Shown here: one piece after another, positions 3,401 to 33,206 of the stretch
Numbering within the stretch: position 1 is the first letter of the stretch
Layout of the letters: the number at the start of each line of letters is the position of its first letter
NCBI GenBank assembly: GCA_951813565.1
Contig: OX638351.1
Coordinates: 4,192,001-4,256,000, forward strand
DNA: 64,000 nt
Source of the DNA: an uncultured Poribacteria bacterium
GTDB lineage: Bacteria > Poribacteria > WGA-4E > WGA-3G
Direction of reading: 5' to 3'
The notes under the pieces: generated by a model
Seen by the model: the letters and a program-made list of their open reading frames with translations, nothing else
Databases searched by the model: none
What the model was told of the DNA's origin: nothing
Program-made: the position numbers and the translations under genes

Positions 3401-5193
3401 TGTCCCCATGCTTCACGTATAAGCATATCATCATGTATTCTATGGAGTTCGTCTAACCTTTCTCCTGCCTTAAAGCCTACTTCAAAATCACTACTATGCG
3501 TTTCCCATTCGGTTGACTGCACAGCAACACCTGATAAGTCTGGTGCATCTAATACATGACGCGCCGCTCGGATGAGATTTTCAATCTGCTCACAAGTATC
3601 CGGTGGCACAAGTTTGAGGTGCTGTGCAAGTTGTTCAGATGAATCCTTGAGTTCGGTAACTCTTTTTCTTGCTTCCGCTGATGCTCGTTTAAGTGATTCT
3701 CTATCAGTAGGAAGAAATACCTTACATTGACTTCCCCAAAACGGATGTTTTTTGGGTATACCCATCCGCTTAAGGAGTGTTTGGAATACTTCAGTAAGTT
3801 CCAATCCTTTTCTAAATTCAGATATTGAATGTTGAAAATCTTTTGATGCTAAAGTCGGCAGTTCCTTTCCTGAGAGGAGACGTTGTGTGGCTAAAAGTTC
3901 TCCATACGCCTGATAAGGTGTGATACCACTCTCGCCAATTGGGGTGTTGACTGCTTCACAGTATCTATTCAAACGGTTACGATCATCAAGAAGATTCTCG
4001 AGTTTTTGTTTTAGGCCTGTTATTTTTGGTTCACTGGTATCAAGAATACGCCTTAGTTCATCAACAACTGCTTTTTTGTTCATCTTATGACTATGTAGTT
4101 CTAAACAGGCATTGCCAAGTCCAATCTTGTCCAAATTCCGCTTGACTACTTCTAAAGCTGCCATCTTCTCAGCAACAAAAAGCACACGTTTCCCTTCCAT
4201 TATAGATGCAGCAATCAAATTGGTAATGGTCTGGGATTTACCTGTGCCGGGTGGACCTTGAATAACGAGATTTCGTCCTTCACTTACATCATGGATAGCC
4301 AATGCTTGTGAACTGTCTGCATTAACTACGTGATGCGTATTTTCGGGAGTCAGGTGTAGATCAACGTTGGGTTCGCTATCCTCAATGGATGAGTCTGGTT
4401 CTTGAAATCCGTTTACGAGCACTGAATCCAATATTGGGTGTTTGGAGAGAGTATTATCGGGCCAATTGTTAACGTCTAAATCGCAGTACATCAGAAACTT
4501 GGCAAATGAGAAAAAACCGAGTGCAATTGTTAAATCATCTACTGACCATCGCTTTAGGTTAACAATTACCTCACTTACTTCTTCAAAGTATTTTAGAATG
4601 GTGGACTGATTAAGGTCATCCACATCGGGAAGATCTGGTAATTGAATACTGAATTCAGCTTTCAGTTTTTCTTGAAGTGATAGATTCGTTCCAATCTCCT
4701 CGTCTGTGTACTGAACTCTAAAATTAGCACGTACACTCGTTCGGTTGAGTTCCACTGGAATCATAATTAGTGGAGCACGACGTAAAATCTCACTAGATTC
4801 AGATTCATACCATTCAAGCATACCAAGCGCGAGATAGAGGGTAGTCACACCTTGCTCTCCAATTGCTGTTCGTTCAGTATACTCGGTGTTTCTTAGACGC
4901 TTTTGAAGTTCAGTAGATGAATGGTTTGTCTGGAGTTTGGTGTCCGTATGTCTATCAGGGTCATGTTCCGTTTCATCTTCAAATAGAAAACTATATTCTT
5001 CAGATTCATCTTTTGGTAAGAAAGACATAGTTTTCTTATCCTGAACAAGTATCTGATAAGTATCTGGTGGAGATTCATCAATGATCTCAACGCCTCTCGC
5101 CTTGAGAAGTTTATAGTTTATCAATGGGTTTCGCAAGGTTAAGTCAAGCAGTTCAGCACGAGCTTTATCTAATTTCGTTTTTACAAAATTCAT
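451..5193 (-). CDS. DUF4011 - SF1 (Upf1-like) helicase - Vsr/MTES_1575-like nuclease - DUF3320 protein; Hhe-type defence helicase
   Basis: N-terminal LLDLTLRNPLIN; Walker A GPPGTGKSQT; DEASQ, VGDTQQLPP, WHYRS, NVQGDERD, RRLNVLITR; nuclease SPFE..IDLGV..GIECDG..YHS..RDRDR..GW..RIWSTDW. Start placed at ATG 5193 (MNFVK). Confidence 0.85.
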   Translation of the reverse strand: MNFVKTKLDKARAELLDLTLRNPLINYKLLKARGVEIIDESPPDTYQILVQDKKTMSFLPKDESEEYSFLFEDETEHDPDRHTDTKLQTNHSSTELQKRLRNTEYTERTAIGEQGVTTLYLALGMLEWYESESSEILRRAPLIMIPVELNRTSVRANFRVQYTDEEIGTNLSLQEKLKAEFSIQLPDLPDVDDLNQSTILKYFEEVSEVIVNLKRWSVDDLTIALGFFSFAKFLMYCDLDVNNWPDNTLSKHPILDSVLVNGFQEPDSSIEDSEPNVDLHLTPENTHHVVNADSSQALAIHDVSEGRNLVIQGPPGTGKSQTITNLIAASIMEGKRVLFVAEKMAALEVVKRNLDKIGLGNACLELHSHKMNKKAVVDELRRILDTSEPKITGLKQKLENLLDDRNRLNRYCEAVNTPIGESGITPYQAYGELLATQRLLSGKELPTLASKDFQHSISEFRKGLELTEVFQTLLKRMGIPKKHPFWGSQCKVFLPTDRESLKRASAEARKRVTELKDSSEQLAQHLKLVPPDTCEQIENLIRAARHVLDAPDLSGVAVQSTEWETHSSDFEVGFKAGERLDELHRIHDDMLIREAWGQNVLEMRQKLAAHGDKWWRILSGNYRRALNELKGLCSQPQLLPKTHHSRLRIVDAILEVQSESPQLEQIQEIGQELFGSHWQGQSSNWDQLREISKYMSATRQSVANYELPEAVVTYLASNPNLEELKASLATVEELLSNYPHLLQTVIDKIQLDEKVRFGCDDGLKQLPFTEQIKIFRCWETEPGILQDMVSYNHHVEALMDNGFIEIVKVANEWSEAGEYLSDLLKQTWYNAKIETVMTERPILAGFSSETHQHILERFKELDRISLNYNKVKVAHQHWKHLPQYEASSGQLGLLRREFQKKRRHLPIRQLMTKSGNAIQAIKPVFMMSPLSVATFIPPKSVDFDLVVFDEASQVKPVDAFGSIVRGKQTVVVGDTQQLPPTSFFDKHTDEDDDTEENVTADTESILGLFSAQNSPERMLRWHYRSRHPSLIAVSNFCFYDNKLIIFPSPDAAREKVGLVYHYLPDTAYDRGGSRSNLEEAKIVAKKVMEHARLRPHLTLGVATFSTAQMQAIQDQLELLRREDPSCEDTFFNAYPEEPFFVKNLENVQGDERDIIFISVGYGRDANGKLTMNFGPLGRDGGERRLNVLITRSRQRCEVFTNLTTDDIDISRTDARGVAVLKRYLKYAQTDVLDIPDIPKPGVRPPDSPFEVEVADALRKSGYEIDHQIGTAGYFIDLGVKDPERPGRYLLGIECDGATYHSAQSARDRDRIRQEVLEGLGWRIHRIWSTDWFRFPDRELKKAAEAIEAAKAHIPFSIGKTPETNNHDSNEDKDEPETEVDPTGDPTPEPKSNSLAEKYKLAELSISTNGLNLHAVPCRSMMGWIQRVVEFESPVHINEVAKRIANAAGFKRIGNRIQDAVKFAATQVARSESIQIKKTSLYETFLYWTGQKNITVRDRSELPNTSRKFKLIAPEEIQEAIKLIVSESCGIEQDDLPRATCRLFGFKKVNWDMQYEIEGIIYKMIERSELADKAGSLVLLQ

Positions 5194-5367
5194 CTCATAT
5201 ACACCATAATTAATTGTTGAGTTAACCGTTATATTTTTACTTAGTGAGACGTTAAACGCATATAAGCATATCAAAAAGAGGGTTTTGCTCTAATCAGACG
5301 TTCCTCTTGGAGGAAACTCTTTATTAACACTACGGTCTAACTAATAGTTGCGTCAAGGCAATATCAT

Positions 5368-5643
5368 CTACGATGATTCAATCGCGTGGAGACGTTCAGC
5401 TAACCATAAGTTAACCAAAGTTTCCGGTAAGATACCCTGTTCCAGTGCTTGCCTCTCAATTTTTTCATAGATCTCTGGGGTAAGCGTTACACGGCACTTT
5501 CGCTGCATCCGAACCTCAAAATGGACTTCATGTGTTTCGTCCCAGTGGTCAGCCAAGCTATGCGTGTCCCAATAGTCGGCTATTTCCTCCAGAGTGCGTG
5601 CCTTAGACATACTGGTAACCTGTTCGTGTTTATTTTCTTTCAT
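5368..5643 (-). CDS. CopG/BrnA-like antitoxin (orphan)
   Basis: EIADYWDTHSLADHW motif and C-terminal ribbon-helix-helix-like VTLTPEIYEKIERQALEQGILPETLVNLWLAERL. Confidence 0.75.
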   Translation of the reverse strand: MKENKHEQVTSMSKARTLEEIADYWDTHSLADHWDETHEVHFEVRMQRKCRVTLTPEIYEKIERQALEQGILPETLVNLWLAERLHAIESS

Positions 5644-5667
5644 ACCTCTCGCGCATCCAAGTATATA

Positions 5668-5985
5668 AACGTGAGTTCGATATAAAAAATTGGTTCATCA
5701 CGTGGATTCGATTGAACGAAAAACAGTTCCAACGCAACCCAAAACATCGTCTTTGCTCCAGCGGAGCAATATGTTTATAGCGATCATCCGAACCAGTGTT
5801 TCCGCTCCAGCGGAGCGGTATGTGAGATTATCACATAGCACTCCGCTGGAGTGCAAGAACTTTGAGATTAGCTTTTCTATAGACATAGCACTCCGCTGGA
5901 GTGCGGGAACATGTCCGTCATCAAATCTGCGCTAAATGTGATATATTGTGTCGGATTTTTCTAACCTTTATGTCGAACTCACGTT
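5668..5985. mobile_element. Miniature TIR element (AACGTGAG family), copy 1, carrying four CTCCGCTGGAG-type palindromes
   Basis: TIR AACGTGAGTTCGATATAAA / TTTATGTCGAACTCACGTT (18/19); ATATA(A) direct repeat on the flanks. Confidence 0.8.
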
Positions 5986-18995: not shown

Positions 18996-20912
18996 CTAAT
19001 CGGGCAATATCCTATATCCGCTACTAATCCCTGTAGTCATCCCTACTATTGCCCATAAACCAGCACATAACATCTCTCCAATGACCAGGCCAAGGAATGC
19101 AGGACGCGCTTGACGGTACGCTTTCAGTCCCCCGTATTTCACGATGGCAAATTTCATCCCCCATCCTAAAAAGATAGAGAACCACAGTTTGAAAGTTGCC
19201 CATGAACTCAACATCGTGTAACCGAGAGGGTGTAGAGGCCACCAAACAAAGGTCTGCCGCATCCACATTAACCACCCTGTGAACCCGCCTCCGAACAGGA
19301 TAAATCCTGTATCTGTCCAATTAGTACTCGTTTTTGGACTTGTGAGCAGCCCTTCAAGTTGCCGCATAAACCAACCGCCGCCCATATAAGGCGCGCCGTG
19401 TGCATACCCAACTTTGATTGCCGAATAATAAGAGACCCCCAGTCCGATGACCATCGCAACCGCCATCGCAATGAGCAGTTGCCGGCGCTTGACGCGTGCC
19501 TCGTCTGCAGCTTTCAGTCCATTCATAATATTTGGCATCATAAATTCGCGCAGGTCAAGCGTGAGACACACGGGATGCATCATTAACGACGTTAATGTTG
19601 AAGGATGAATTTTTGAGGTGCCGAGTGTCGTTAGAAAGAAACTTTGTGGTGAAAATGACGGATTGATAAACGGAATACCACCGTTAATTACCTGCCACGT
19701 CAATACGACATACATTGCCAGCAGAAATAGCACAAATCCAAGTGCGAACAATATAGACATGCCCATCAGGTGGTTGAAAAACACGAGAACGCAGATACCT
19801 CCGAGAAGCCCAAAGATCGTAAAACCGTAGGACATCGCTTCATCAGAAGTGCGAGACTGAAACATGTGTTTGATATGATGGCGTGTTTTCCATAAAGCGA
19901 TAGCAACAAACACAAGACATGCTCCCGCTTCCTGTGCAGCGCTAAACGATTTTCCTGTCCATTGGACACCCGGACCAGAAGTCAGTTGAAAACCGAGCAG
20001 GACACCTATCAGACATTGCAGCTTGTAAAACAGAAAAAAAAACCAGATACTAAATGAAACTTCCAAGGTTAGCAGGTAGCTAAAACCTACCATAGACCAA
20101 AAGATGACGACTTGAAATGGACGCAATGCAGTCCACGGTCTTTCGTTGAAATATTGATTAAGCCAAAAATCGCGTGGGATATGTGGAACGGAAGGAAAAA
20201 ACGTATGGAGTCCGTTCATCGTATGCAGGAATACGGGGAATGCAACGCCAAACCAGAATACGCTGTTCTTAAAGAGCGGTCCGAGTCTGCCGCTGCCTTG
20301 CACTGCCATCTCAACGGGAAGTTTGACGAGTGGAAAGGCACAACGTTCATATTCCACCCACTGCTTTCGGAGTAATACTGAGAGGCAGATCATCACGAAA
20401 TAGATTACAAGGACATAAGCACTCCAGATAAAAATAGGCGTAATCCAGGCGCCCCACGGCACCGTTTCACCAGCAAATAATCCTTCGTAGAAGGAGCTGA
20501 TAGCCGTTTCATCACGTACCACGCGCCAGTGTGGAATGTAGTGGTAAAACAGTGACTCCCAATCGTTTTCTGGTGTAGCAAAATGCTTGTAGGCGATCAT
20601 TGGACTAAGCGCGTAGCGCATCATACCCGAAGACGGGATACCTGCAGGCGCGAGCATAATACACCAGATTGTGATGAGTTCACCGGGCGAAAATGCGGAT
20701 TTGGGGTGTATCTGTTTTAAGATAACGTTTATCCCCAATACAAATATAGTGAGCACAAAGAAGGGACCGACAGGGAAGTGTCCGCCTGCGAGGAAGATGT
20801 TACGAATGACGTAATCATTATATGGCGCAAGTAGACATTCAATTGTGGCGCACACCAAACCGATGAGTACTGCGCGCCGAGATAAGCTTGTCCGAGTTCG
20901 TTGTTGTATCAA
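18996..20912 (-). CDS. Polytopic membrane protein, DUF6785-like putative transporter
   Basis: Many TM segments; LRKQWVEYERCAFPL and WWPLHPLGY motifs. Confidence 0.7.
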   Translation of the reverse strand: MIQQRTRTSLSRRAVLIGLVCATIECLLAPYNDYVIRNIFLAGGHFPVGPFFVLTIFVLGINVILKQIHPKSAFSPGELITIWCIMLAPAGIPSSGMMRYALSPMIAYKHFATPENDWESLFYHYIPHWRVVRDETAISSFYEGLFAGETVPWGAWITPIFIWSAYVLVIYFVMICLSVLLRKQWVEYERCAFPLVKLPVEMAVQGSGRLGPLFKNSVFWFGVAFPVFLHTMNGLHTFFPSVPHIPRDFWLNQYFNERPWTALRPFQVVIFWSMVGFSYLLTLEVSFSIWFFFLFYKLQCLIGVLLGFQLTSGPGVQWTGKSFSAAQEAGACLVFVAIALWKTRHHIKHMFQSRTSDEAMSYGFTIFGLLGGICVLVFFNHLMGMSILFALGFVLFLLAMYVVLTWQVINGGIPFINPSFSPQSFFLTTLGTSKIHPSTLTSLMMHPVCLTLDLREFMMPNIMNGLKAADEARVKRRQLLIAMAVAMVIGLGVSYYSAIKVGYAHGAPYMGGGWFMRQLEGLLTSPKTSTNWTDTGFILFGGGFTGWLMWMRQTFVWWPLHPLGYTMLSSWATFKLWFSIFLGWGMKFAIVKYGGLKAYRQARPAFLGLVIGEMLCAGLWAIVGMTTGISSGYRILPD

Positions 20913-20972
20913 TATTTGCTCATTTTTGTATTGAGACGTTGTGCGTTTTTAGGCTGTGATGCTTCTTCACGT

Positions 20973-22775
20973 TCATTTTCCTACATTCGGATCTAATTCC
21001 TTTGCTTTTTCAAAATCAGCTTTTGCTGCTTCCTTGCGTCCAAGTGCCTCTTTTGCGAATCCGCGCTTGTGGTATGCTCTCGCGTGTCTTGAGTTCACTT
21101 TAATAACTTGATCAAAATCTTCAATTGCCGATTCATATAAGTTTATTGCTTTTTTACTATTTCCTCGGTTGGTTTCAATTTTCCCAAGTTCAATTTCCGC
21201 ATTACCTCGAATGTTGTAGGCATAAGTATCTATTACTTCATTGGATTTGCGGAACAATCGTCGTCGGTTGATGTGGGATGTATAATCCTTAACTGCAGCT
21301 TCATATAGCATTTGCGATCTTTCGATGTTTCCCTGATCCGATTCAAACTTGCCGTAAATATAGTATGCATAACCTCGGCTGCTGTAGTCTGCTATGCCTT
21401 TATGGGAACTCTTTATTCTTTGAGTACAGTTCTGTACAAATTCTTTATAGTACTTTCGAGATAGATCAACAAATTTTTCATCCTTAGATTTCCTAAGAAA
21501 ATCTTTTATTTCTTTCACTTTCCGATAAACTTTGGAAGATTTGGGAGTACGTTCGATTGCTATATTATAATAAAAAATAGCATCTTCATAGAAACGCTGT
21601 GCCTTTTTGGTATATGAGCGTTTCAATTCATTATCCCCAAGGTTTGACTTTTGGAGTCCATTATAATAGAATAGTTGGATATGCATAGGATTTATCATAA
21701 TAGCATTATTTAAATCTGATATCGCTTCTTTACGGTTTCCAAGTTCAAACTTTGTTGTTCCTTGCAGCAAATATGCATCAGCATTCTCAGGATTTATTTT
21801 GATAGCATCTGAAAAGTCTTTAATCGCTGCCTTGAAATAATCATTTGCTTGCTGTGTCCTTCCAGATTGGATATCCAGAAAACCTTGTTGCAGTTTCGCA
21901 TCACCCCGTTTATAGTAGGAGTAAATAGATTCAGTATTTAACTTAATTGCTTGATTGAATTCAGAGATAGCATTTTTATATTGTCCCCTATCGAATTTTA
22001 TTTTCCCATGAACATGGTGAGCGTATGATCGGATTTCATCCCGCTGACGCCATTCCGCTAAAGACTCAATTTTCTCTGATTGAGTAAGTAATACTCTGAG
22101 ATTGTTTGAAGGGACAGTGAGAGAATAACCGAGGGTTGGGTTTGAGTAGGCATGAATCCCTATAACTTCTCCCTTTTTGTTAAAAACTGGACTACCACTA
22201 CTTCCGCCACTTAAATTTATTTCTATTTGTAACCGTTGACCGCTTTTCTCGATATTGTATACTCGTCCCTTGCTAAAACTATATTTTCTACTGGGGAATC
22301 CCATGGTTGTAATAGGTTCGTTGACTTTTATTTCTTTGCTGTTACCAATTGGGAATGGTGTGCTGACTGCATTGACTTTGAGAATTACAAGATCGTTTTT
22401 GACATCAAACGCTGTGACACCTGCAATAATGCCAATTGCTTCTTTGTTAACTGATTCTGTGGATTTTATTCCTGTTAAAGGAAGGGTAGCATTGTTTACC
22501 CCAACTTTTTTTATTATAATTGGTCTTTGTGGTGCTACAACATGTATATTGGTCGCAACTTTGTCTGATGCAACAAAGAACCCTGTGCCATACCATTTCT
22601 CCTTACCTGTCCCAACTTCTATGTGGACTACAGATCCCTTTAGGTTTTTAATATCACGATTTAATAATAGAGATTGGACATCTATATTAAAAAATAGTTT
22701 AACAACCCACACACCTAAAAGAAGCATTCCCAAAGCAACTAACAAACTTAATAAGTTTTTTCTATTTTGTGTCAT
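20973..22775 (-). CDS. Membrane-anchored trypsin-like serine protease with TPR repeats
   Basis: N-terminal TM; triad motifs TNIHVV, DLVILK, GGSSGSP; C-terminal TPRs (AYHKRGFAK..LG....A.ADFEKA). Confidence 0.88.
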   Translation of the reverse strand: MTQNRKNLLSLLVALGMLLLGVWVVKLFFNIDVQSLLLNRDIKNLKGSVVHIEVGTGKEKWYGTGFFVASDKVATNIHVVAPQRPIIIKKVGVNNATLPLTGIKSTESVNKEAIGIIAGVTAFDVKNDLVILKVNAVSTPFPIGNSKEIKVNEPITTMGFPSRKYSFSKGRVYNIEKSGQRLQIEINLSGGSSGSPVFNKKGEVIGIHAYSNPTLGYSLTVPSNNLRVLLTQSEKIESLAEWRQRDEIRSYAHHVHGKIKFDRGQYKNAISEFNQAIKLNTESIYSYYKRGDAKLQQGFLDIQSGRTQQANDYFKAAIKDFSDAIKINPENADAYLLQGTTKFELGNRKEAISDLNNAIMINPMHIQLFYYNGLQKSNLGDNELKRSYTKKAQRFYEDAIFYYNIAIERTPKSSKVYRKVKEIKDFLRKSKDEKFVDLSRKYYKEFVQNCTQRIKSSHKGIADYSSRGYAYYIYGKFESDQGNIERSQMLYEAAVKDYTSHINRRRLFRKSNEVIDTYAYNIRGNAEIELGKIETNRGNSKKAINLYESAIEDFDQVIKVNSRHARAYHKRGFAKEALGRKEAAKADFEKAKELDPNVGK

Positions 22776-22787
22776 AAGAGTAAACCT

Positions 22788-22831
22788 TGTTAATATCTGA
22801 GAGTGACAATGTTAATATCTGAGAGTGACAA
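22788..22831. repeat. Perfect 22-bp tandem duplication
   Basis: TGTTAATATCTGAGAGTGACAA x2, immediately upstream of the protease-TPR start. Confidence 0.9.
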
Positions 22832-23049
22832 TCTTTCCGAGTGCTGATTCTGCGTTAATCATACACAAAATAGAGGGTTCTGTAAACTGTTTTGCTATTA
22901 TGACAATGAAATTGGTCTTCTATTGAAAAATTATATGACAAATTATTAAAAGTCAAGTAAAATAGTAACAGAATGTTTAAGCACATGACCGAAATTGTTG
23001 CAGTCGTAAGAAAATAGGCTTATTTTGACATAAAAACGGAGATTTAATT

Positions 23050-24555
23050 ATGCAAACACATTCTAATTTATTCAGCGATGAACAGATGCGAGATTTCGTT
23101 GTCCACGGATATGTTACAGTGAAAACGGATTTGCCGCGTAGTGTTCACGAAACAATCTATCGAAAAACACAGGAATATACAGAAAAAGAAGGTAACTTGG
23201 GAAATAACATCTTTCCGCGAGTTCCAGAGTTGCAGGCTGTATTTGAGGATTCTGCGGTTCGTGGGGCATTTACCAGTATTTTAGGGCAAAATTATGTGAT
23301 GCATTCACATCGGCACCCGCATCGGAATGCACCGCACAGTGGTGGGCAAGGATTTCACAAGGATAGCTACTGGGGACATCAGAAAGTTCGGCATCACCTT
23401 CCCCGCTGGGCGATGGCGTTCTACTATCCACAGGATACGCCGGTTGAAATCGGTCCTTCAGCAATCTTATCGGGAACGCAATACTACAGTAACAGGATTA
23501 CTGAGAACAACGATGGCGAAGTTGCCCTCAGTGGTGAAGCCGGAACGGTATCAATCATCCACTTTGACCTGTGGCATCGCGCAATGGCGAATCAGACTGA
23601 TAAGACTCGCTACATGATGAAATTTCAGTTTATCCGTTTGGATGAACCACAAGCACCAGAATGGGACGTGGAAGACCCAAACTGGAAAGCTGAAGGACTT
23701 GACATGAATGGTAACCCTGCAGCTAAAAGCCATGAGACTACATGGCGACACGTTTGGCAGTGGATGACAGGGAATTCCAATGAGCATAATGCAAAGCCAG
23801 TAAACGGCAATTTGTCGCAGCACATTGAAGCACTGAGTGATGAGAATCCATCTGTGCGTTCTGATGCTGCCGATGGATTGGGGTTGTTAGGAGAATCCGC
23901 AGCAGACGCTATTCCCATGTTGACTGATGCTTTACAAGATGACTATGAACCTGCCCGACTCAATGCTGCTTACGCGTTGGGCGCTATTGGTGAGTTGGCT
24001 GTGCCTGCTTTAATCGAAAAACTTGGTAGTGAAAATGGTCCGACACGACGGATGGCGGCGTATGGGTTAGCAGCTGTCGGTCCTCCTGCTGTGTCAGCAC
24101 TTTGCGAAGCATTAGAACATGAAAATGATGCGGTGCGCGTTGAAGCGAGTTATGCTTTGGCACAGATAGGAAGCGGTGCCGAACCAGCGGTTTCTGCTTT
24201 GATGGAACACGCTAAAGATAACAATGCGGAAGTCCGTCGATATATTCCTGAAGCATTCGGAGCAATAGGGCCGCCTGCAGCGCCTGCAGTGCCGACCTTG
24301 ATTGATAGGTTAGCGAACGATGATGATGTCCAGGTCCGTTTTGAGTCCGCATTAGCGTTAGCTCAAATTGGCCCTGCTTCAAGTGATGCGATTCCCGTTT
24401 TGAAGGAGTCGTTATCAGATAAAAATCGGTACGTGCGGGACAATTCTATCCATGCGCTCAAACGAATCGGTACACCAGAAGCCGAATCGGCACTCTTCGA
24501 TTATCTGCTTATGGCGCGATGGTGTCCTATTACCAACAGCGAAAGCACATTTTAA
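23050..24555 (+). CDS. PhyH-family dioxygenase fused to HEAT/PBS-lyase repeats
   Basis: HKD...LWHRA facial triad; C-terminal repeats of type VR..AA.ALG.IG..A..AVP.L. Confidence 0.88.
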   Translation: MQTHSNLFSDEQMRDFVVHGYVTVKTDLPRSVHETIYRKTQEYTEKEGNLGNNIFPRVPELQAVFEDSAVRGAFTSILGQNYVMHSHRHPHRNAPHSGGQGFHKDSYWGHQKVRHHLPRWAMAFYYPQDTPVEIGPSAILSGTQYYSNRITENNDGEVALSGEAGTVSIIHFDLWHRAMANQTDKTRYMMKFQFIRLDEPQAPEWDVEDPNWKAEGLDMNGNPAAKSHETTWRHVWQWMTGNSNEHNAKPVNGNLSQHIEALSDENPSVRSDAADGLGLLGESAADAIPMLTDALQDDYEPARLNAAYALGAIGELAVPALIEKLGSENGPTRRMAAYGLAAVGPPAVSALCEALEHENDAVRVEASYALAQIGSGAEPAVSALMEHAKDNNAEVRRYIPEAFGAIGPPAAPAVPTLIDRLANDDDVQVRFESALALAQIGPASSDAIPVLKESLSDKNRYVRDNSIHALKRIGTPEAESALFDYLLMARWCPITNSESTF

Positions 24556-24847
24556 GGTAGTAAAGTTTACAAATTTTTAGAACTGTTGTAGGCGCGCTTT
24601 GTAAACGCGCCTAAAATAGAGTCAAGTATTCGCGCGCTTTACACTATTATTCTATTTTAGTGTCTCGTCTTATTGAATTTGACAACGATAAAAATGTAGT
24701 CAAATTCGCACGTCCTGCTGCTGCAGAAGCACGTTCAGAATATCTTGCATCAATAGGCGCAATAGACTAATCAGACAGCGCGGTGTAAAAGCCGCGCATC
24801 TAATCGCACCAATTTGGAATATGAAAACTAAAAAAGGAGGTTGCACC

Positions 24848-24990
24848 ATGAACATCACAAAAGGGATATTTTGGGCAGTTCGATCAAAAACGCAAGCGAT
24901 GAAGCATTATTTCTTGAGCTGGCACTGCGGGGGTACGACTTGACAAAGCTACATGAGAAAAACCACAGCGAACTTATCAAAATCGCATAA
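24848..24990 (+). pseudogene. Small-protein gene with an apparent 1-bp deletion (MNITK/RDILGSSIKNASDEALFLELALRGYDLTKL...)
   Basis: AGGAGG RBS then ATG; protein-like sequence continues to TAA 24990 in another frame after acaaaagggat. Confidence 0.4.
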
Positions 24991-25002
24991 TTCTGTTTTA
25001 TT

Positions 25003-25365
25003 GTGAGGAGGTACAATCTAATTGTTATGAATAAAGTCATACATTTTAGCATAACGTTAAAGTATTCAGTTTATTTCTTAATTCCATTATTTCTTATTGG
25101 GTGTGGTGAAATTGGTGAGCCTGATGAACCACCGATCCCTGATTATCATACAATCATACAAAGACATTTAGCAGGTAAAATCTATGAAGCAAGAATTACT
25201 TCCCATTCCCGCAGGGGCAACTTTGTTACATACCTAGCCGATGGCAGAATCACTGATTGGGCTTCCCCACTTTACGTTATGAGGTTGTATATGAATTGGT
25301 CAATGGTAGATGGACACATATCAGAACTACAAAAAGGTAACCCACAAAAGAGCGAAACAAATTAA
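25003..25365 (+). CDS. Hypothetical lipoprotein, possibly truncated
   Basis: Hydrophobic stretch ending in LIGC lipobox; true start probably ATG 25027. Confidence 0.45.
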   Translation: MRRYNLIVMNKVIHFSITLKYSVYFLIPLFLIGCGEIGEPDEPPIPDYHTIIQRHLAGKIYEARITSHSRRGNFVTYLADGRITDWASPLYVMRLYMNWSMVDGHISELQKGNPQKSETN

Positions 25366-25510
25366 GCATCATTTTTCAGGTAAGACCACAGAGCACCTCA
25401 AAAAAATGCGTTAGAAGGGCATTTAGAGGTGAATTTTTAAGAAAGGCTCAGGCTCGGCACTGCGGCAGGCGCGTGCTTAGCACTCCCCGTCAAACCCCCT
25501 GCCTTTAGGT

Positions 25511-27189
25511 CTTACTATTACCCATAAGTCGAAATTCTTACTATTGATCATAAATTCGACATAAAGTGCAGACATCTATTTTCTTGATTTACATTCACCT
25601 GTGCTGTCAAGATAAGTGTATTTTCGCTTGGGTCATTGGGTCATAATATACTTGCATATCAAGAACATTTGTGTTATGTTCAATAGATATTATTACCAAC
25701 ACAAGTAACACTTATGGATCTGATACATTGGAGTGAATAATGATGTCTACAAACAAGAAAGAGTTATCTACATCTTGGAGTATTGAAGAGTTTACGGGTC
25801 TTGATTTGGGAGATGCCCGTCTAAATAAAAGGTTGCTCAGCGTTGCAGATGCGTTGGCGGCACATCCTACCGCAACCATCAACGCTGCGTGTGGCGATTG
25901 GGCATCGGTGAAGGGTGCCTATCGTTTATTTGATAATGAAAAGGTTTCTTCAGAGAAGATATTGGCACCTCACTTTAGACAGACGATTGCGCGGATGTGT
26001 GCGTATCAGCGTGTGTTTGCTATACAAGATACAACCTATCTGGATTACACCGATCACCCGTCAACAGAAGGTTTAGGTCCGATTGGTGCCTCGTCTCATC
26101 ACCATTATGGTTTTGTCAAACACACGACACTCATCGTGAGTGGGTCGGGGCTCCCGCTTGGGTGTTTGACAGATAAAGTGTGGGTTCGGGATGCGCCGAC
26201 ACAAGAAAAAAAACGGAAATCCAGACCGCTGGTAGAAAAAGAGAGCTACAAGTGGATTGAAGCAGTGTCGGCAATAAAATCCGAAGCCCCAGAAGGTGTT
26301 GAGGTGATTTGCATTTGTGATCGTGAAGCTGATATTTATGAGTTTTTCGTTGAAGCACAAGAGATGCCTTTTGTAATGCGTGCTGCGCAAGATCGTGTGG
26401 TTGATAATGATGTTGGTAGATTGCGTGCTTTAGCAGAAAGTCTACCGGTTGCTGGTGAGTTTAGCATACAAGTTGCAGCGCGTGGTGCCCAACCTGCCCG
26501 AGAAGCAACTCTGAGCGTTAGTTTCACAAAAACGACGCTTCTCCCACCGCATCGTTCGCAAGCATCACGCTCCCAAGAGCTGCCTGCTGTGGAAATATAT
26601 CTCGTATGGGTGATAGAGACGAACCCACCCGATGGCACAACACCTGTGGAATGGCTGCTCCTTACAAATGTGAAAGTCACAGATTTCTCAGATGCGATTG
26701 AACGGGTAGACTGGTATACGCAACGCTGGCACATTGAAGTCTATTTCAAAATCCTCAAATCAGGAACGAAAGTTGAGGAAGTCCGCTTCCAAACCCAAGA
26801 GAGACTCCTACGCTTTATTGCCCTGCTGAGCGTGATTGCTTGGCGTCTTTATTGGTTGACAATCATCAATCGGCAGGCACCGGATACGGACTGCACACAT
26901 ATATTGACTGAAGTTGAGTGGAAAGCACTTTACTGTATAACACATAAGACGCACATTTTACCGAAAAAACTACCAACTGTGTCTGAAGTCGTTGTTTGGA
27001 TCGCCAAACTGGGTGGCTTTTTAGGACGAAAGTCCGATGGTAAACCTGGAGTGACCGTTATTTGGAGAGGATGGTAAAGGCTTAGTGATATTTCTGACAC
27101 CTTTGCTCTTTTTCACCAATACACACAAAACAATATCGGTCAGAACCTTATTGATGGACATGTTCCATAAACTTATGGGTAATAGTAAG
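25511..27189 (+). mobile_element. IS4-family (IS50/Tn5-like) insertion sequence
   Basis: Perfect 19-bp TIR CTTACTATTACCCATAAGT, resembling the IS50 end CTGACTCTTATACACAAGT; flanks are inverted rather than directly repeated. Confidence 0.9.
25740..27170 (+). pseudogene. IS50-like DDE transposase with premature TAA near the C-terminus
   Basis: LGDARLNKR, QDTT, DREADIYE, Y..RW.IE.YFK.LKSG, LGGFLGRKSDGKPG; ...WRGW*RLSDI... reads on in frame to TAA 27170. Confidence 0.8.
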
Positions 27190-27191
27190 AC

Positions 27192-27596
27192 CTAAAGGCA
27201 GGGGGTTTGAAGGGGAGTGCTAATAAAAGGTTTCAGCTTTTCCAATGTCTTTTCTCCCAAACCCTTTACTTTGGTCAGCGCATCAACTGAAGTAAAATTG
27301 CCGTGTTCTTCACGATATTGAATAATCCTTTGCGCCATTTGTGGACCAATACCTGAAAGTGTTTCAAGTTCTTCTGCGGAGGCAGTGTTGATATTGAGAA
27401 GTGCAGGTTTATCTTGGACAGATTGTTGCGGTTGATTTTCGTTGGGAACAGCGATGAAATCCGGTTTTCCGAGGAATAGGGCAGGGTTAAACCGTCGCAA
27501 ACCCCAGAATCCTGCACCGATTAAAATGACCAGTACCAAAAAGGTGACCGCACGCCAATAATGTTTGGCAATGACACCTTCAATATTTTTTGCCAC
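27192..27596 (-). CDS. comEA: ComEA-family helix-hairpin-helix DNA-binding protein
   Basis: TM anchor, LNINTASAEELETLSGIGP, VKGLGEKT; GTG start at 27596 after AGGAGG; last ~9 codons lie in the IS605-like end remnant. Confidence 0.85.
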   Translation of the reverse strand: MAKNIEGVIAKHYWRAVTFLVLVILIGAGFWGLRRFNPALFLGKPDFIAVPNENQPQQSVQDKPALLNINTASAEELETLSGIGPQMAQRIIQYREEHGNFTSVDALTKVKGLGEKTLEKLKPFISTPLQTPCL

Positions 27597-27607
27597 CGTT
27601 GTCCTCC

Positions 27608-28150
27608 TTAGGATTTCCAAATCGGTTCTGGTATCTGAGAGCGGTGATTCGCCACGCGTGCCAAAACAAACAACAGATCTGAAAGGCGATTTAAACTTCG
27701 GATTATTTCTGGGTTCACGTCTGTTTCTCGTGTTAGGCGGACAACACACCTTTCACTTCGGCGGCACACAGCGCGCGCAACGTGTAAAACTGAACCAGCT
27801 TGGCATCCACCGGGGAGAATAAAGTTTGTTAGCGGCGGCAGTTCCTCTGAAAGCGTATCAATCACTTTCTCCATCTCTGTTGTAAAATCTGCGGATATTC
27901 GCATCTCTGTAGATTTTGTATGTGTGGCTGGGGTTGCTAAGTCTGCGCCGAGTGAAAAAAGGTGATTTTGGATACGCTCCATCAAGTCACAAAGGTCCGT
28001 ATCATCAATCAAAGTCTGTGTATAACCGATATAGGCGTTGAGTTCGTCCACAGTACCTATCGCTTCAATTTGCAGTGCGTCCTTCGGAATACGGGTGCCA
28101 CCGTACAGTGCTGTTTCCCCAGAATCCCCAAATTTTGTATAGATTTTCAT
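27608..28150 (-). CDS. pduO: PduO-type cob(I)alamin adenosyltransferase
   Basis: KIYTKFGDSGET, GTVDELN, FILPGG, RAVCRRSER, LNRLSDLLFVLAR. Confidence 0.92.
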   Translation of the reverse strand: MKIYTKFGDSGETALYGGTRIPKDALQIEAIGTVDELNAYIGYTQTLIDDTDLCDLMERIQNHLFSLGADLATPATHTKSTEMRISADFTTEMEKVIDTLSEELPPLTNFILPGGCQAGSVLHVARAVCRRSERCVVRLTRETDVNPEIIRSLNRLSDLLFVLARVANHRSQIPEPIWKS

Positions 28151-28194
28151 GGTGATTTATTTTATACTGTGTAGCGAAAGGAGTCAACTCAATT

Positions 28195-29553
28195 ATGGAC
28201 ACTCGGACGACACATTTTGCTCAAATAGATTGCAAAATTAAAAACGTTAATGTTATAGATTTACGCGTACCTACATCGGATACACTGCTCGGTTCAGATC
28301 CATTCCACAAGAAACCAAACTATTCCGCAGTGCTAACCACTATAGAAACAAGCACAGTACATACCGGTATTTCAGTGGCTTTCACGGCTGGTGCGGGAAA
28401 CGATTGGATCGCTTACGGTGTTAAAGACCTCGCGCAACTTGTAACGGGGATGGAAATTGATACCTTCGTCAACGATCCGGGAGAATTTCACCGACTTCTC
28501 ATCGATCATCACCAGTTGCGTTGGCTTGCAGATGGGGTTAATCGGATGGCAATCGGCAGTATTGTCAATGCGATGTGGGACCTTTGGGCGAAACTGGTTG
28601 AAAAACCGTTATGGAAACTCCTTGTTGACTTGCCACCAGAAAAAATCGTACAGAGCATTGATTGGCGATATCTGCGAGATGCGTTGACACCAGATGAAGC
28701 ACAAGAAATTCTCAGCGAACATTGGGACAACCGTGAATCCCGTGAGGATGCTCTCTGTCAGAAGGGGCCGAAGGCATATTCCACTGCAGGTTGGCTCGGT
28801 TTAACAGACGAACAAATTATTGAGACAGTAAATCAGGTAAAAGCAGCCGGTCTTGATTGCTTTAAGATGAAAGTAGGTCAAGATTTAGATTTTGATAAGA
28901 AACGGCTTGCCTTTATTCGGGAGGCAATCGGCAACGATGCGCTTTTGATGCTGGATGCGAATCAGGTGTGGGGTGTTGATGAAGCAATCGCCCACATGGA
29001 GGCGCTTGTGGAATTCAAACCGACATGGATTGAAGAGCCAACAGCACGAGATGATGTTCTCGGCTTTGTGAAGATTGCACGTGCATTGGAAAAATATGGT
29101 ATCGGTGTTGCTGCAGGGGAGCAGGTCCCGTCACCTGTCATCTTCAAGCAGTTGATAACAAGTGATGCGATACAATTCTGCCAGATTGATGCAACGCGAC
29201 TTGGTGGTGTGAACGATGTGTTGGCAGTGATTCTGATGGCAGCAAAGTATAAAGTGCCTGTTTGTCCACATGGCGGTGGCATCGGTTTATGTAATATGAT
29301 TCAGCATTATGCTATGTGGGATCAAATTTGTGTTGCAGCACATTCAGATACACAGGTAGTAGAATATCTTAATTTTCTGCAAGATGACGTGTTCATTGAA
29401 CCGATTAAGATTAGAAATGGCGCGTATGTTGCGCCGACGGTGCCCGGATGGGGTCTTGAGATGTCCCCTGATTTTGTGGAAAAGCATACCTATCCGACTG
29501 GTTCAGTCTGGCAAGGCAGAGAGGAGTCAGGTGGGATAACGTTTTTGGCATGA
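28195..29553 (+). CDS. Enolase superfamily, L-fuconate dehydratase-like
   Basis: DLRVPTS..GSDP, AYSTAGWLG, KMKVG, MLDANQVW, WIEEPT, VCPHGGGIGLC. Confidence 0.85.
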   Translation: MDTRTTHFAQIDCKIKNVNVIDLRVPTSDTLLGSDPFHKKPNYSAVLTTIETSTVHTGISVAFTAGAGNDWIAYGVKDLAQLVTGMEIDTFVNDPGEFHRLLIDHHQLRWLADGVNRMAIGSIVNAMWDLWAKLVEKPLWKLLVDLPPEKIVQSIDWRYLRDALTPDEAQEILSEHWDNRESREDALCQKGPKAYSTAGWLGLTDEQIIETVNQVKAAGLDCFKMKVGQDLDFDKKRLAFIREAIGNDALLMLDANQVWGVDEAIAHMEALVEFKPTWIEEPTARDDVLGFVKIARALEKYGIGVAAGEQVPSPVIFKQLITSDAIQFCQIDATRLGGVNDVLAVILMAAKYKVPVCPHGGGIGLCNMIQHYAMWDQICVAAHSDTQVVEYLNFLQDDVFIEPIKIRNGAYVAPTVPGWGLEMSPDFVEKHTYPTGSVWQGREESGGITFLA

Positions 29554-29669
29554 TTGCATTAGCATGTCAAAACAGGTCTAATCATCAGGCTCTTGCTGCG
29601 GATTTAACTGCTTTTTAATATCTGTCAATGTTTTGTTCATGTCCGACAGAATTATCAAAACCTCACAGA

Positions 29670-29873
29670 TTATACGTAGCAATATTGGGTATAAATAAAC
29701 CAATAAAATCCTGTAAAGAAACCGTATTGCCAAGCGGAAAACCCAGGAAATAATCACACATTTTGAACAATTCGAAATACACCAACAATGAAACAGAAAT
29801 AAATGCCAATCCGAAACAGGACTGGAATGATGACCGGGATTAACATCTTCTTAAAATTGAGAAAATATTTCAT
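29670..29873 (-). pseudogene. Possible small membrane-protein gene interrupted by TGA
   Basis: MKYFLNFKKMLIPVIIPVLFRIGIYFCFIVGVFRIVQNV*LFPGFSAWQYGFFTGFYWFIYTQYCYV*. Confidence 0.3.
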
Positions 29874-29945
29874 GTAAATTTCCTTATCTAATTTGTTAGG
29901 ACATAATTCATCTGTTTTTTCGCTTCATTTGAAAAGGATTTTACT

Positions 29946-30863
29946 TCAACACCCGTCGTAAGGCTTTGCGTATCCTGATTCAATCATGTGTTCACCAACG
30001 TTAATCTCTTTTCCATCTTTCATGATATATATTTCACATTCAATTCCAACTTTATCATACCCATCTGCATCCCACCATGCCATCCAAATCATGTTTTTAA
30101 TAGTAATTTGATTGTTTGCCTCCCGTATCAACTTTTTGAGATATTCTGTTGCCCCTTCAATCCCTTCGGTTGAAATACCGGTAATCCGCAAATCTGCCTG
30201 AGCAAAAATACCTTGAGGTGTCAGTTGGATTGCAGGCCAAATATATTTAGGTTTAGAAATAAAATCTTCAGGTAGCGGATGCAGCGGAATCATGGTGTCA
30301 TGAATCCTTTCATTCCATATCCTATTAGAATTCTCAAGCTTAACCTGAAAAACCTTCTGAGACAATTTGCCAACGTCAAAATATCCATTGATCACTTTTA
30401 TCTCTTCGTTTTCCTTGATGGTATAAATATCAACTTCCATTGAAAATGGATTTTGATAGATAAAATGGTCGTATGACCAATGACTCCAACGTATCTTTTT
30501 TAGCAGAATTTTCTGATTAGCATCCTTAAAGAAATATCCAACCCCGCGTGTAATTGCTGCATAGTCCTCCGTACTTCCCAGCTGGATGTCTAAATCTGCT
30601 ACAATCTCTTTAGGTGTGAGTTTGATAGAGGGCCAAATCTCTATCGGTTTTTTTATAAAACCATCTGGTAGTGAATGCAAAGAAAGATTAACACTTGTAA
30701 GAGTGTCCCGATTTTCAATTCGCGCTAAGCTTTGGAAGGTTCCTATATAAACGCTTTCACCTGGCCGCTGATTATTAAATTGTCCAACGACTGAACCGAC
30801 CGTGACAAAACACAATGTAGCAATTATGATTATTTCTGAAAATTTTCTCATTGCAAAACTCAC
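29946..30863 (-). CDS. Secreted hypothetical protein with internal duplication, thermonuclease-like
   Basis: Signal peptide; two similar halves; C-terminus INVGEHMIESGYAKPYDG. Confidence 0.6.
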   Translation of the reverse strand: MSFAMRKFSEIIIIATLCFVTVGSVVGQFNNQRPGESVYIGTFQSLARIENRDTLTSVNLSLHSLPDGFIKKPIEIWPSIKLTPKEIVADLDIQLGSTEDYAAITRGVGYFFKDANQKILLKKIRWSHWSYDHFIYQNPFSMEVDIYTIKENEEIKVINGYFDVGKLSQKVFQVKLENSNRIWNERIHDTMIPLHPLPEDFISKPKYIWPAIQLTPQGIFAQADLRITGISTEGIEGATEYLKKLIREANNQITIKNMIWMAWWDADGYDKVGIECEIYIMKDGKEINVGEHMIESGYAKPYDGC

Positions 30864-30929
30864 TACAGTTTACTGTAGAACTGATTTTTTACAACACCAT
30901 ATAAATACACACCATCGCCACTATTAAAG

Positions 30930-31685
30930 TTATGGTTTCGCACTTTCCGCTTGTTGTTTGTATGCAGCTGCACCCGATGAAATCCATCCGCCGACACTAA
31001 CAAGCAGAAACTGCACACCAGCTTTGACATATTTCTCAACGGTATTATCCAGCGCCAGTGTCCCTGCGACGCGCCCCCCATCTTGAATACGTGCCAATGC
31101 CGAATCAATAGTGTTTTGCACATCGGGGTGGTTATGATTACCGATGTGTCCCATTGATGTCGCTAAATCTGAGGGTGCTACAAAAAACACATCTATATGG
31201 TCAACAGTAAGAATCTCATCCAAATTGTTTACGGCGACAATATCTTCGATAAGAACAACGAGTAATGTCTGTGAGTTAGCAACGTCAAAATAGTCGTCCA
31301 CGCCATACCCTTGGCGACTTGTGAACATACCTCGGTGTCCAATAGGCGCGAACTTTCCGCCATCAACAACGTTTTGTGCTTCCGCTTTTGTATTAACATG
31401 CGGCACGACAATCCCCATCGCGCCGCAATCCAAGGTGCGGTAGATGAGTGCTTGATCGTTGCGATTGACACGCACTACAGACGTCATGCCCCACAAATCA
31501 CATGCACGTGTGAGATTACCGAGGTTTGTAGCATCTACATTGCCATGTTCACCTTCTAACCACACGCCATCAAATCCATTGGGACCGAAAGCATCTATAT
31601 CATCTGTGTTTGTCAATCCCGCGATGATATACGCAAGTTCGCCAGATGCCAATTTCTGTTTAACTCGATTGGGTCTTATTTCCAT
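30930..31685 (-). CDS. HpcH/HpaI aldolase family protein
   Basis: GFDGVWLEGEHG, LDCGAMGIVVPHV, LIED, FVAPSDL. Confidence 0.9.
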   Translation of the reverse strand: MEIRPNRVKQKLASGELAYIIAGLTNTDDIDAFGPNGFDGVWLEGEHGNVDATNLGNLTRACDLWGMTSVVRVNRNDQALIYRTLDCGAMGIVVPHVNTKAEAQNVVDGGKFAPIGHRGMFTSRQGYGVDDYFDVANSQTLLVVLIEDIVAVNNLDEILTVDHIDVFFVAPSDLATSMGHIGNHNHPDVQNTIDSALARIQDGGRVAGTLALDNTVEKYVKAGVQFLLVSVGGWISSGAAAYKQQAESAKP

Positions 31686-31886
31686 TATGTTCTCTCTTTT
31701 ATAGTAAATTAACAATTAACGATATACTATTGTGTAACGTGTTTATAAAACGTCTTATAGTTTTGATCATAAGTCGCGAGCTGGAACTCGCTCCTACAGA
31801 AAGAGGCACAATGAATTGCGCGACTACAAACACATCATTTTTACAGAAAATTGCTTAGTATTTGTAAGTTTCACTATTGTAGGTTT

Positions 31887-33206
31887 TCAAACAAGGAATT
31901 TTGCTGGTAGCACTTGATGTGCTGTATCAATTACTAACTGTTCAACACCGGGTGCAAACCGAGTAGGCTGACCGAAATATATCATTGCACCGCCACCTTC
32001 ATATCCGCCTTCAGCTAATACCCGTTCTGATGGGATATAGCCGGGAAAAGCGTTTGCGTAAGCACCTACCCATAGCCTCGTCACGTCAAACTCCCGTTTC
32101 AGACGTAACGAAAAATCTACTACCACCTCACTTGCAAGGAACAGAACAGCTAACTCATCACCGAACGTCCACGCTTGTATCGGATAAGAGATTTCGGTTT
32201 TGATTGCTTGTCCTTTCTGCAACATTTCAAGATGTTTTTGAGCATGGTATGCGGGTGCACCCCCTTGTGCAGCACGTGCTTCCCACTCCTCACGGGTTGG
32301 AAGTTTATCAAAGGGCAAATTTACTCTCTGAAACACACCTATAGGCACATTGGAAATGTTGATTGCATCTCGTTCAAGTTGGTGTTCTACCTCTTGCGCA
32401 AGTGCCTTTCCGTGTTCTTTGGCATAAGCGAGACGTGTTTCAAAAACCTCCTGTTTTCCTTCAGGCATCGGTCGCATCCGTGACTCTGGGTTCGCATCAG
32501 CACCACATCCAATTGTTATTAGTGCGGTTACGTCGGGATGTGCCTTTTGAATTTCCTCCTGCGCATATCCTGCCCAGTCTCCGCAGATATGGTTATCCGC
32601 ACCTGCTAACGTTGTGCAATGGCAAGCATAACTTGCCCATACCGCGCGCAAAGTGCCATCTGCATCGGTTATCTGCATCACTGGTAATGAATGGTCTACA
32701 GGTCCACCATCTGTGCGTCTATTTTTCGCAAAACCGAGTTCACCGATGTTCCATGCTAATCGGCAAGGTTGTCGTCTTGTGAGTGCCTCCAGCGCAATGG
32801 TTTCCATCCAGTTAGAAAGTTGACGCGTATAGCGGTCAATCTTTTCTTGTTCCTCTGGTGAAATATCTGCGCTGAAGATGAACGATGCAGCGTTTGTGAG
32901 ACACGGTGCGCTGTGGGTATGTGTGTAGCACGCTACGAAATTCTCTCGCGGGATTCCTGTTTTATTTTTCACGCGTTCGGACACTTCTTCGGTTAACTCA
33001 TCAGGTAAGCCGCAGTTTTCTACGGTTATCATTACCACAGGACCATCTTCATCGCTACCAATAGCAAGTGCTTTTGCCCATATCCGCTGAATAATTCCCT
33101 CGGATTCTGCTCGCCTACTTCCATACCCATTGAGCCGAATTGGGTAATCTGGGGTAATATCTATTTGTGCAACGCCAACTTCAATGAGATTTTCTTTGTC
33201 TGCCAT
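31887..33206 (-). CDS. Neutral/alkaline ceramidase-like amidohydrolase family protein
   Basis: DITP, THTHSAP, NRR, YACHCT, YIPS...GGYE. Confidence 0.8.
   Translation of the reverse strand: MADKENLIEVGVAQIDITPDYPIRLNGYGSRRAESEGIIQRIWAKALAIGSDEDGPVVMITVENCGLPDELTEEVSERVKNKTGIPRENFVACYTHTHSAPCLTNAASFIFSADISPEEQEKIDRYTRQLSNWMETIALEALTRRQPCRLAWNIGELGFAKNRRTDGGPVDHSLPVMQITDADGTLRAVWASYACHCTTLAGADNHICGDWAGYAQEEIQKAHPDVTALITIGCGADANPESRMRPMPEGKQEVFETRLAYAKEHGKALAQEVEHQLERDAINISNVPIGVFQRVNLPFDKLPTREEWEARAAQGGAPAYHAQKHLEMLQKGQAIKTEISYPIQAWTFGDELAVLFLASEVVVDFSLRLKREFDVTRLWVGAYANAFPGYIPSERVLAEGGYEGGGAMIYFGQPTRFAPGVEQLVIDTAHQVLPAKFLV

Follow-up and report, generated by a model that had tools for sequence, protein, structure and literature searches.

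The insertion sequence (IS) in the window, a 64,000-nt stretch of the genome of an uncultured Poribacteria bacterium, is the middle hinge of two adjacent inversions. It belongs to a family of five copies and lies between two left halves of IS605-type left ends which face each other in inverted orientation. We give a probability of roughly 0.6 to the explanation as a whole, namely that an IS50-subgroup element with a CCCC-N12-GGGG-like target was inserted into palindromes and that homologous recombination between its copies produced both inversions. The features discussed are collected in Table 1.

Table 1. Features of the window and copies of the IS in the genome (window positions unless marked as genome positions)
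Feature	Position	Strand	Remarks
HEAT-repeat gene end and decayed ORF (left flank)	24400..25476	+
TTAG target, left cleavage site of IS605 copy 1 (tnpA+tnpB element)	25477..25480	+
Left half of IS605 left end 1	25481..25510	+	11-nt spacer; guide AAAC 25492-25495; hairpin 5' arm and loop
9-bp target duplication of insertion 1, one copy	25502..25510	+	partner beside copy C (genome 3746253)
IS4-family, IS50-subgroup IS (copy E of five)	25511..27189	+	1,679 bp; perfect 19-bp ends
Left terminal inverted repeat, 19 bp	25511..25529	+	imperfect inner copy from 25537
Tn5-type transposase	25740..27077	+	445 aa; premature TAA at 27075
Right terminal inverted repeat, 19 bp	27171..27189	-
9-bp target duplication of insertion 2, one copy	27190..27198	-	partner beside copy D (genome 4851251)
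Left half of IS605 left end 2 (tnpB-only element)	27190..27219	-	one spacer substitution at 27211
comEA-like helix-hairpin-helix gene	27192..27749	-	Pfam HHH_3; start uncertain
TTAG target of IS605 copy 2	27220..27223	-	within last codons of comEA
IS copy A	genome 717339		9-bp direct repeats
IS copy B	genome 1680660		9-bp direct repeats
IS copy C	genome 3746253	-	no direct repeat
IS copy E	window	+	no direct repeat
IS copy D	genome 4849574	-	no direct repeat

Structure of the window copy

A repeat search over positions 20,000-33,000 returned 36 inverted pairs within these 13 kb. The longest (53 nt, 98% complementary) has its arms at 25477-25529 and 27171-27223 and a single mismatch, 25489 G against 27211, while the runner-up measured 29 nt at 72%. 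The search confirmed the initial annotation, which had described a 53-bp inverted repeat reaching 34 bp beyond the 19-bp terminal repeat and accompanied by no direct duplication. Each arm consists of the 19-bp IS end and 34 bp of a genuine IS605 left end; the flanks of the window copy are thus inverted repeats, and a direct repeat is absent.

Judged from the window copy by itself, the 53-bp repeat might be taken for the true terminus of a new type of element that makes no target duplication. This is extremely improbable, and the 53-bp terminus was rejected, because all five genomic copies end at the 19-mers. In the four other copies the element stops at the 19-bp repeat, and 9-bp duplications flank two of these copies; of the 38 copies in five relatives, 34 possess an 8-11-bp duplication of their own.

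On the right, the natural end of comEA (KPFISVE*) has been exchanged for KPFISTPLQTPCL*, read from the IS605 end. On the left, the decayed ORF at 25003-25476 once ran into a coiled-coil-like ORF now found beyond the IS605 element of copy C; its reading frames point to frameshifts and a stop, and in run X2 one base is inserted at 25264. Further upstream, an exact 22-bp tandem duplication (22788-22831) is located just upstream of a minus-strand TPR/protease-like ORF.

The IS605 host elements

The 34-bp flank represents the outermost 34 bp of an IS605 left end, intact versions of which occur at 29 further places in the genome. Full elements encode a Y1 TnpA and TnpB; in most copies tnpB is the sole gene or genes are missing altogether. 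The element next to copy C matches Y1_Tnp (E 1e-40), OrfB_IS605 and Cas12f1-like_TNB, and the one beside copy D has tnpB only. A right-end hairpin was found in 43 IS605 copies. TTAG precedes all left ends found (31/31), with AAAC at the foot of the hairpin, and in a sister family of the same genome seven copies pair a TTAA target with an AAAT guide. The initial annotation had proposed an IS200/IS605-type left end with target TTAG and guide AAAC, to be sought in an intact form linked to tnpA/tnpB, and it proved right in these respects.

The pairs TTAG-AAAC and TTAA-AAAT show the covariation expected from the guide mechanism of IS608, the model used here for the host element (He et al. 2011, PMC3201880). 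Going by the parts of that source available, the host element and IS608 have in common the tetranucleotide 5' of the left end, the guide at the foot of a subterminal hairpin and the order tnpA then tnpB. They differ in that IS608 uses TTAC/AAAG and has 19 nt between target and hairpin foot, compared with about 15 nt here.

The intact left end folds at -10.2 kcal/mol (z -2.4), and the split half joined to the IS end does not fold (-0.2 kcal/mol). Splitting of the hairpin would remove the TnpA binding site from both IS605 copies, which are therefore likely to be immobilised with their tnpB intact. Insertion into such hairpins, which would leave tnpB and its guide RNA intact, may be a plausible route by which TnpB genes become fixed in chromosomes. 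The empty site in comEA re-forms without extra bases, and IS605 insertion hence makes no duplication.

Some further features were noted in the same contig. At G000:C1:918780-918813 a minimal IS605 derivative of ~50 bp occurs, its left end passing through a shared hairpin into the right end. Two other IS families abut halves of IS605 hairpins, a right-end half at G000:C1:362589-363603 and a left-end half at 5368325-5369550. A lone IS4 end with one mismatch follows a C-run at G000:C1:134524 (minus) with unrelated DNA behind it, and may represent a MITE or a remnant end.

Classification of the transposase

The transposase, 476 aa long in copies A, B and C, matches Pfam Tnp_DNA_bind and Dimer_Tnp_Tn5, and its best PDB match is Tn5 transposase (E 1.8e-42, residues 5-456). 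Alignment to the latter places the DDE residues of the single ORF at about D97, D194 and E333, in agreement with the spacing D(60-110)D(100-150)E, and the Y(2)R(3)E(6)K motif is present as Y326, R329, E333 and K340. The 19-bp end agrees with every listed position of the IS50-subgroup consensus CW------Y---CA-A--W. This consensus, the YREK motif and the DDE spacing are as tabulated in De Palmenaer et al. 2008 (PMC2266710; the tabulated part). The 8-9 bp direct repeats of the subgroup are matched by duplications of 9 bp at four of five sites in this genome, the fifth having 10 bp. Over six genomes, lengths of 9 bp (17 sites), 10 bp (18), 11 bp (3) and 8 bp (1) were recorded, each being the longest match, which may overshoot in G/C runs. 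The IS length of 1,679 bp falls outside the 1,350-1,550 bp typical of the subgroup, a range that is descriptive, not defining; among the matches listed, relatives measure 1,522-1,891 bp.

On these sequence features the element is assigned to the IS50 subgroup (Tn5-type), with Tn5 itself as the one subgroup member used for comparison. It resembles IS50/Tn5 in Pfam domains, DDE spacing, YREK motif, ends and 9-bp duplication, but it is longer, its duplications extend from 9 to 11 bp and it strongly prefers C-run/G-run palindromes, whereas Tn5 has only a loose 9-bp consensus. The premature ochre stop near the C-terminus of the window protein recalls that of IS50L, and by this analogy the truncated window transposase is likely to be inactive.

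Exchange of flanks among the five copies

The five copies reside in one contig of 5.43 Mb (G000), and the flanks of copies C, D and E are swapped cyclically. The left flank of E re-pairs with C, giving an exact 9-bp duplication within IS605 end 1. Copy D re-pairs with the right flank of E, giving the same 9 bp in the opposite orientation within IS605 end 2. Finally, C re-pairs with D, giving an exact 10-bp duplication in a hairpin that another IS family forms with two of its ends placed head to head; an IS3-like element later split one of these ends. The body of IS605 copy 1 is now 470 kb away beside copy C, and that of IS605 copy 2 630 kb away beside copy D; ancestrally, the left flank continued into the DNA at genome position 3744521, past the right end of IS605 copy 1.

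The initial annotation had assumed oppositely oriented insertions that cut the left end at the same base, and the duplications at C/E and D/E substantiate repeated insertion into the same 9 bp. It had further proposed that recombination between two oppositely oriented insertions joined two left halves, with a reciprocal junction of two right halves elsewhere. Two hairpins are indeed involved, but not in a two-copy swap: a copy with two right halves was sought among the five genomic copies and is absent, and a third insertion site and two inversions are needed instead. Because the cyclic flanks re-pair and the ancestral neighbours are confirmed at two of the three junctions, copy E is the middle hinge of two adjacent inversions. 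From the duplications we deduce ancestral orientations of minus, plus and minus, which two inversions sharing the middle copy convert into the present order. The inverted segments comprise 469,579 bp (C-E, ~470 kb) and 630,384 bp (E-D, ~630 kb).

In the course of events we propose, IS605 copies inserted after TTAG, one of them in the tail of comEA, as the empty sites of relatives and of run X6 show. IS4 copies then split both left-end hairpins and, at the third site, the hairpin of the head-to-head ends, after which the two inversions, sharing the middle copy, would have brought two left halves around E.

The five copies differ at 6 positions and keep private variants. Relative to the outgroup G003, one derived base is common to B and C; the stop codon is present in both E and D. 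These internal variants fit recombination as well as duplicative transposition. IS50-type elements transpose by cut-and-paste, and conversion would pass on the stop with no need for a dead copy to transpose; for these reasons homologous recombination between oppositely oriented copies most likely made both inversions. The stop mutation common to E and D lies near one end, and conversion in the course of recombination could explain it. IS-IS recombination has a precedent in E. coli (PMC5009759).

Alternatively, the transposase itself may have made the inversions. A single copy at the third site would have undergone two successive duplicative intramolecular transpositions into the IS605 hairpins by way of sister-chromosome ends, each event inverting the DNA in between and leaving a copy at each end. 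Such events yield the observed map and orientations (minus, plus, minus) and demand one insertion plus two events as compared with three insertions plus two recombinations. The derived mutation shared by E and D is what a recent duplication leaves, and one copy in G003 also has neither a duplication nor a reciprocal partner. We nevertheless regard this route as rather unlikely, given the cut-and-paste mode of IS50-type elements. No paper on the sister-end step was found in the open literature. If the mutation did not spread later, the second event would have had to be launched by a copy whose transposase was truncated. The derived base of C recurs in B, and E and D do not have it. Homologous recombination therefore remains the route we prefer.

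Irregular flanks were also seen in relatives. At locus L059 of G003 an IS (4226-5895) without direct repeat lies between halves of two different IS200/IS605-type hairpins; it has no reciprocal partner among the 8 copies of G003 and likely reflects an IS-mediated deletion. At loci L035, L037 and L039 of G044 the last 10 bases of the left flank are replaced by the target duplication of L028, and the right flank is native. This pattern resembles gene conversion into the flank or a polishing artefact, and the copies are internally mosaic.

Ancestral arrangement

The flank of copy D, the DNA past the IS605 element of D, comes directly after comEA in 8 of 13 relatives; the remaining five gave no match to this flank within the 1.5 kb fetched. 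In all 13, comEA stops two codons past the TTAG position, and run X6 contains the same empty comEA joint. For the immediate left flank of the window copy (24660-25476) no clear orthologue was found among 39 genomes of the genus, and synteny was therefore taken from the HEAT gene, which adjoins the far flank of C in 5/5 loci tested (of 11 fetched). Metagenome contig L066 joins the left flank of the window to an intact left end of the tnpA subtype, as present at C, with no IS4; this contig ends ~95 bases into the element, where short-read assembly could have entered another copy. For the far flank of copy C no empty site was found in the runs: X1, X2 and X6 enter the IS605 right end, and X8 stops at the boundary.

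Relatives thus confirm the ancestral neighbours at two of three junctions, and for the third (C/D) the evidence is the exact 10-bp duplication. This is the outcome of a synteny comparison which the initial annotation had suggested, and it upholds the view that the window copy marks a rearrangement breakpoint. The empty-site synteny at comEA and the HEAT gene, together with the X6 joint and the intact end in L066, place IS605 insertion first, IS4 insertion second and the inversions last.

Integrity of the assembly

Spanning records had also been called for, but no read or contig record was found that covers the IS with both flanks, and the present order consequently rests on the assembly. It might be argued that the swapped flanks are an artefact, with junctions misjoined across identical 1.7-kb repeats, the more so as copies C and D lie in stacked repeats of 4-5 kb. 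We consider this very unlikely. The assembly consists of a single contig, unique DNA is reached 34 bp from either end of the window copy, and the five copies have kept their private variants. In five other families of 1.1-1.7 kb, 17 of 20 copies retain matching duplications, one of which measures just 3 bp; the count excludes a sixth family, whose 4 copies have no duplications. Run X3, which may be the source sample, holds the joint of right end, half hairpin and comEA without differences, this joint being identical in both arrangements.

Two other observations fit a misassembly. Undoing the inversions renders the cumulative GC skew somewhat more V-shaped, a weak sign that is expected for recent inversions too. 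Inverted half-target flanks similar to those of the window also occur in two short metagenome contigs, L078 (~15 bp) and L102 (~30 bp), which are possibly collapsed assemblies. GC skew in 50-100-kb windows was too noisy for dating or verifying the inversions, and contig depths (X3 ~5 copies, X6 ~20 copies, several at left-end hairpins) were not used, as depth does not equal copy number.

Target preference

Across 39 reconstructed sites from six genomes, C-runs lie to the left and G-runs to the right of the duplication. At most two of eight mismatches to CCCC-N12-GGGG were present in 28 of the 39, compared with 116 of 20,000 random sites, and CCC-N11-13-GGG occurred in 23 of the 39 as against 5 of 5,000; the 39 sites include kin copies and repeated targets and are not independent. 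They stem from a search of 61 genomes, seven of which contain close transposases. Compared with arm-matched random sites, used sites fold better: of the 31 that could be evaluated, a matched background being absent for 8, 27 fall into the lowest quartile, and inner symmetry or structure therefore contributes. Site B and two sites in G056 fit CCCC-N12-GGGG poorly.

A comparable preference is seen in IS186 of E. coli, which we take to be a member of the IS4 family. Its specificity, too, resides in G/C runs on both sides of the duplicated core, and it enters one and the same site in either orientation, as the accessible sections of PMC5009759 describe. IS186 uses GGGG-N6/7-CCCC with a 6-7-bp core, as opposed to CCCC-N12-GGGG with a 9-10-bp core here, and the polarity is hence opposite and the spacing longer. 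By analogy with IS186, the transposase dimer is likely to read directly a palindromic C/G dyad, approximately CCCC-N12-GGGG, and to duplicate its central 9-10 bp.

IS605 left-end hairpins received two of the five insertions in this genome, and IS605 left ends make up 25 of its 43 perfect CCCC-N12-GGGG sites. Two of five hits are expected under the strict rule (P 0.9); under looser rules, where left ends are 24 of 490 or 25 of 362 candidates, two of five is a mild enrichment (P 0.02-0.04). Since the left ends constitute 25 of the 43 perfect sites, the parasitism on another transposon supposed in the initial annotation may follow from the sequence rule. The preference as such is real, and two hairpins were hit at the same 9 bp, but it is not exclusive to IS605, three of the five sites being others, and the palindrome fits most sites.

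Targets in related genomes

In G003, with a transposase 96% identical, 7 of 8 copies lie in hairpins of IS200/IS605 type. Rfam returned nothing at 9 loci with such ends, and the assignment of the G003 hairpins therefore rests on motif and on tnpB, which is nearby at four. A 275-bp MITE that has the ends alone in common with the IS is found with 10-bp duplications in G065 (loci L227-L234) and G064 (L226). It sits in IS200/IS605-type hairpins in 7/7 complete copies of G065, with tnpB within 1.5 kb at five, and in the one copy of G064. Transposon-end targeting (2/5, 7/8, 7/7) is spread over several IS200/IS605 families and is absent in sister lineages.

These counts raise the question of whether the lineage recognises IS200/IS605 ends as such, through the extruded or single-stranded hairpin or a bound TnpA instead of a base-sequence dyad. 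The IS would then be a dedicated hyperparasite using the ends as safe harbours, which is compatible with either inversion route. The seven MITE copies of G065, inserted in several different IS200/IS605-type ends although such motifs number 39 in comparison with 150 generic CCCC-N9-13-GGGG sites, are in line with this, as are the better folding of used sites and the target class, which follows the transposase clades. We hold it to be rather improbable, however, since in addition to the three other sites in this genome none of ~43 right ends of the same IS605 family, which have a hairpin with a broken G-run, was hit. Moreover, 30 copies in G034, G044, G047 and G056 use REP-like palindromes, at most one of them near tnpB. 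Group II intron sites (see below) obey the same C-run/G-run rule without being perfect palindromes, and for IS186 the reading of flanking sequence alone can give such specificity (PMC5009759, as far as consulted). Direct reading of the C/G dyad thus remains the preferred explanation of targeting.

Comparison with known elements

IS231A inserts into the ends of Tn4430, and IS4321/IS5075 insert into inverted repeats of Tn21 type. These elements resemble the present one in repeated insertion into the ends of another element, which is thereby immobilised; their hosts, in contrast, are inverted repeats of the Tn3 family, as opposed to hairpins of single-strand transposons and, in relatives, intron domain V/VI. 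Near-random insertion is typified by Tn5 transposase, yet the homologues treated here strongly prefer GC-stem palindromes in a lineage-dependent manner, so that comparisons or domain swaps can be used to test what determines target capture in Tn5-type enzymes.

The closest precedent for the whole story is ISRm22 of Sinorhizobium meliloti, an IS4-family element of the IS4Sa subgroup (Tobes and Pareja 2006, PMC1525189). According to the available portion of that work, ISRm22 inserts at the axis of palindromic repeats, and three of nine copies have hybrid direct repeats, ascribed to recombination or duplicative intramolecular transposition. It differs in subgroup, in its 6-bp repeats and in its targets, which are REPs of the host and not IS200/IS605 ends or group II introns. 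Searches of the open literature brought up no account of an IS4-family element that targets IS200/IS605 hairpins or intron domain V/VI. The hinge is an ordinary rearrangement product, with hybrid IS flanks, in an unusual setting, and the target preference is a new variant of known behaviour.

Targets in distant kin

A genome collection yielded at least 148 distinct flanks of the 19-bp end; some elements contributed both of their ends, and copies already encountered are among them. At least 22 of these lie by motif at the domain V/VI junction of group II introns, and about 5 more do so by eye. Among the matches listed, the records come from Spirochaeta, Bacillota, Desulfobacterales, Nitrospirae, Akkermansiaceae, Gammaproteobacteria and Wolbachia. 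The insertions show 9-10-bp duplications and affect IIC-like and IIB-like introns in many phyla; they would likely disable the introns. At 20 putative intron loci among the matches listed, Rfam placed RF00029 at the IS end in three and found intron domains just upstream in a fourth, and returned nothing at the other 16. The reverse transcriptase/maturase gene of L102 stops 40 nt short of the IS.

These data allow the tentative and rather doubtful idea that evolution has directed a widespread Tn5-like clade, with the 19-bp end in common, towards essential cis-acting hairpins of other mobile elements as insertion sites. The prey would be specific to the sub-lineage: IS200/IS605 hairpins in some Poribacteria, and, with the same reservation, the group II intron domain V/VI junction in at least six phyla. 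If true, the clade would gain safe multi-copy landing sites, freeze TnpB-carrying elements and seed large inversions.

The transposase homologues share about 40-100% identity with the window protein. A tree of 20 transposases groups the two intron types and the Poribacteria into supported clades and makes G000 and G003 sisters; of the 37 labelled loci among the matches listed, 17 were left out of it for lack of hits or short hits, and the labels are our own. L108 forms one long, unsure branch. IS ends at the intron domain V/VI junction include those of L075, L116, L102, L079, L082, L097, L142 and L144, and likewise of L125, L126, L184, L190, L192 and L203.
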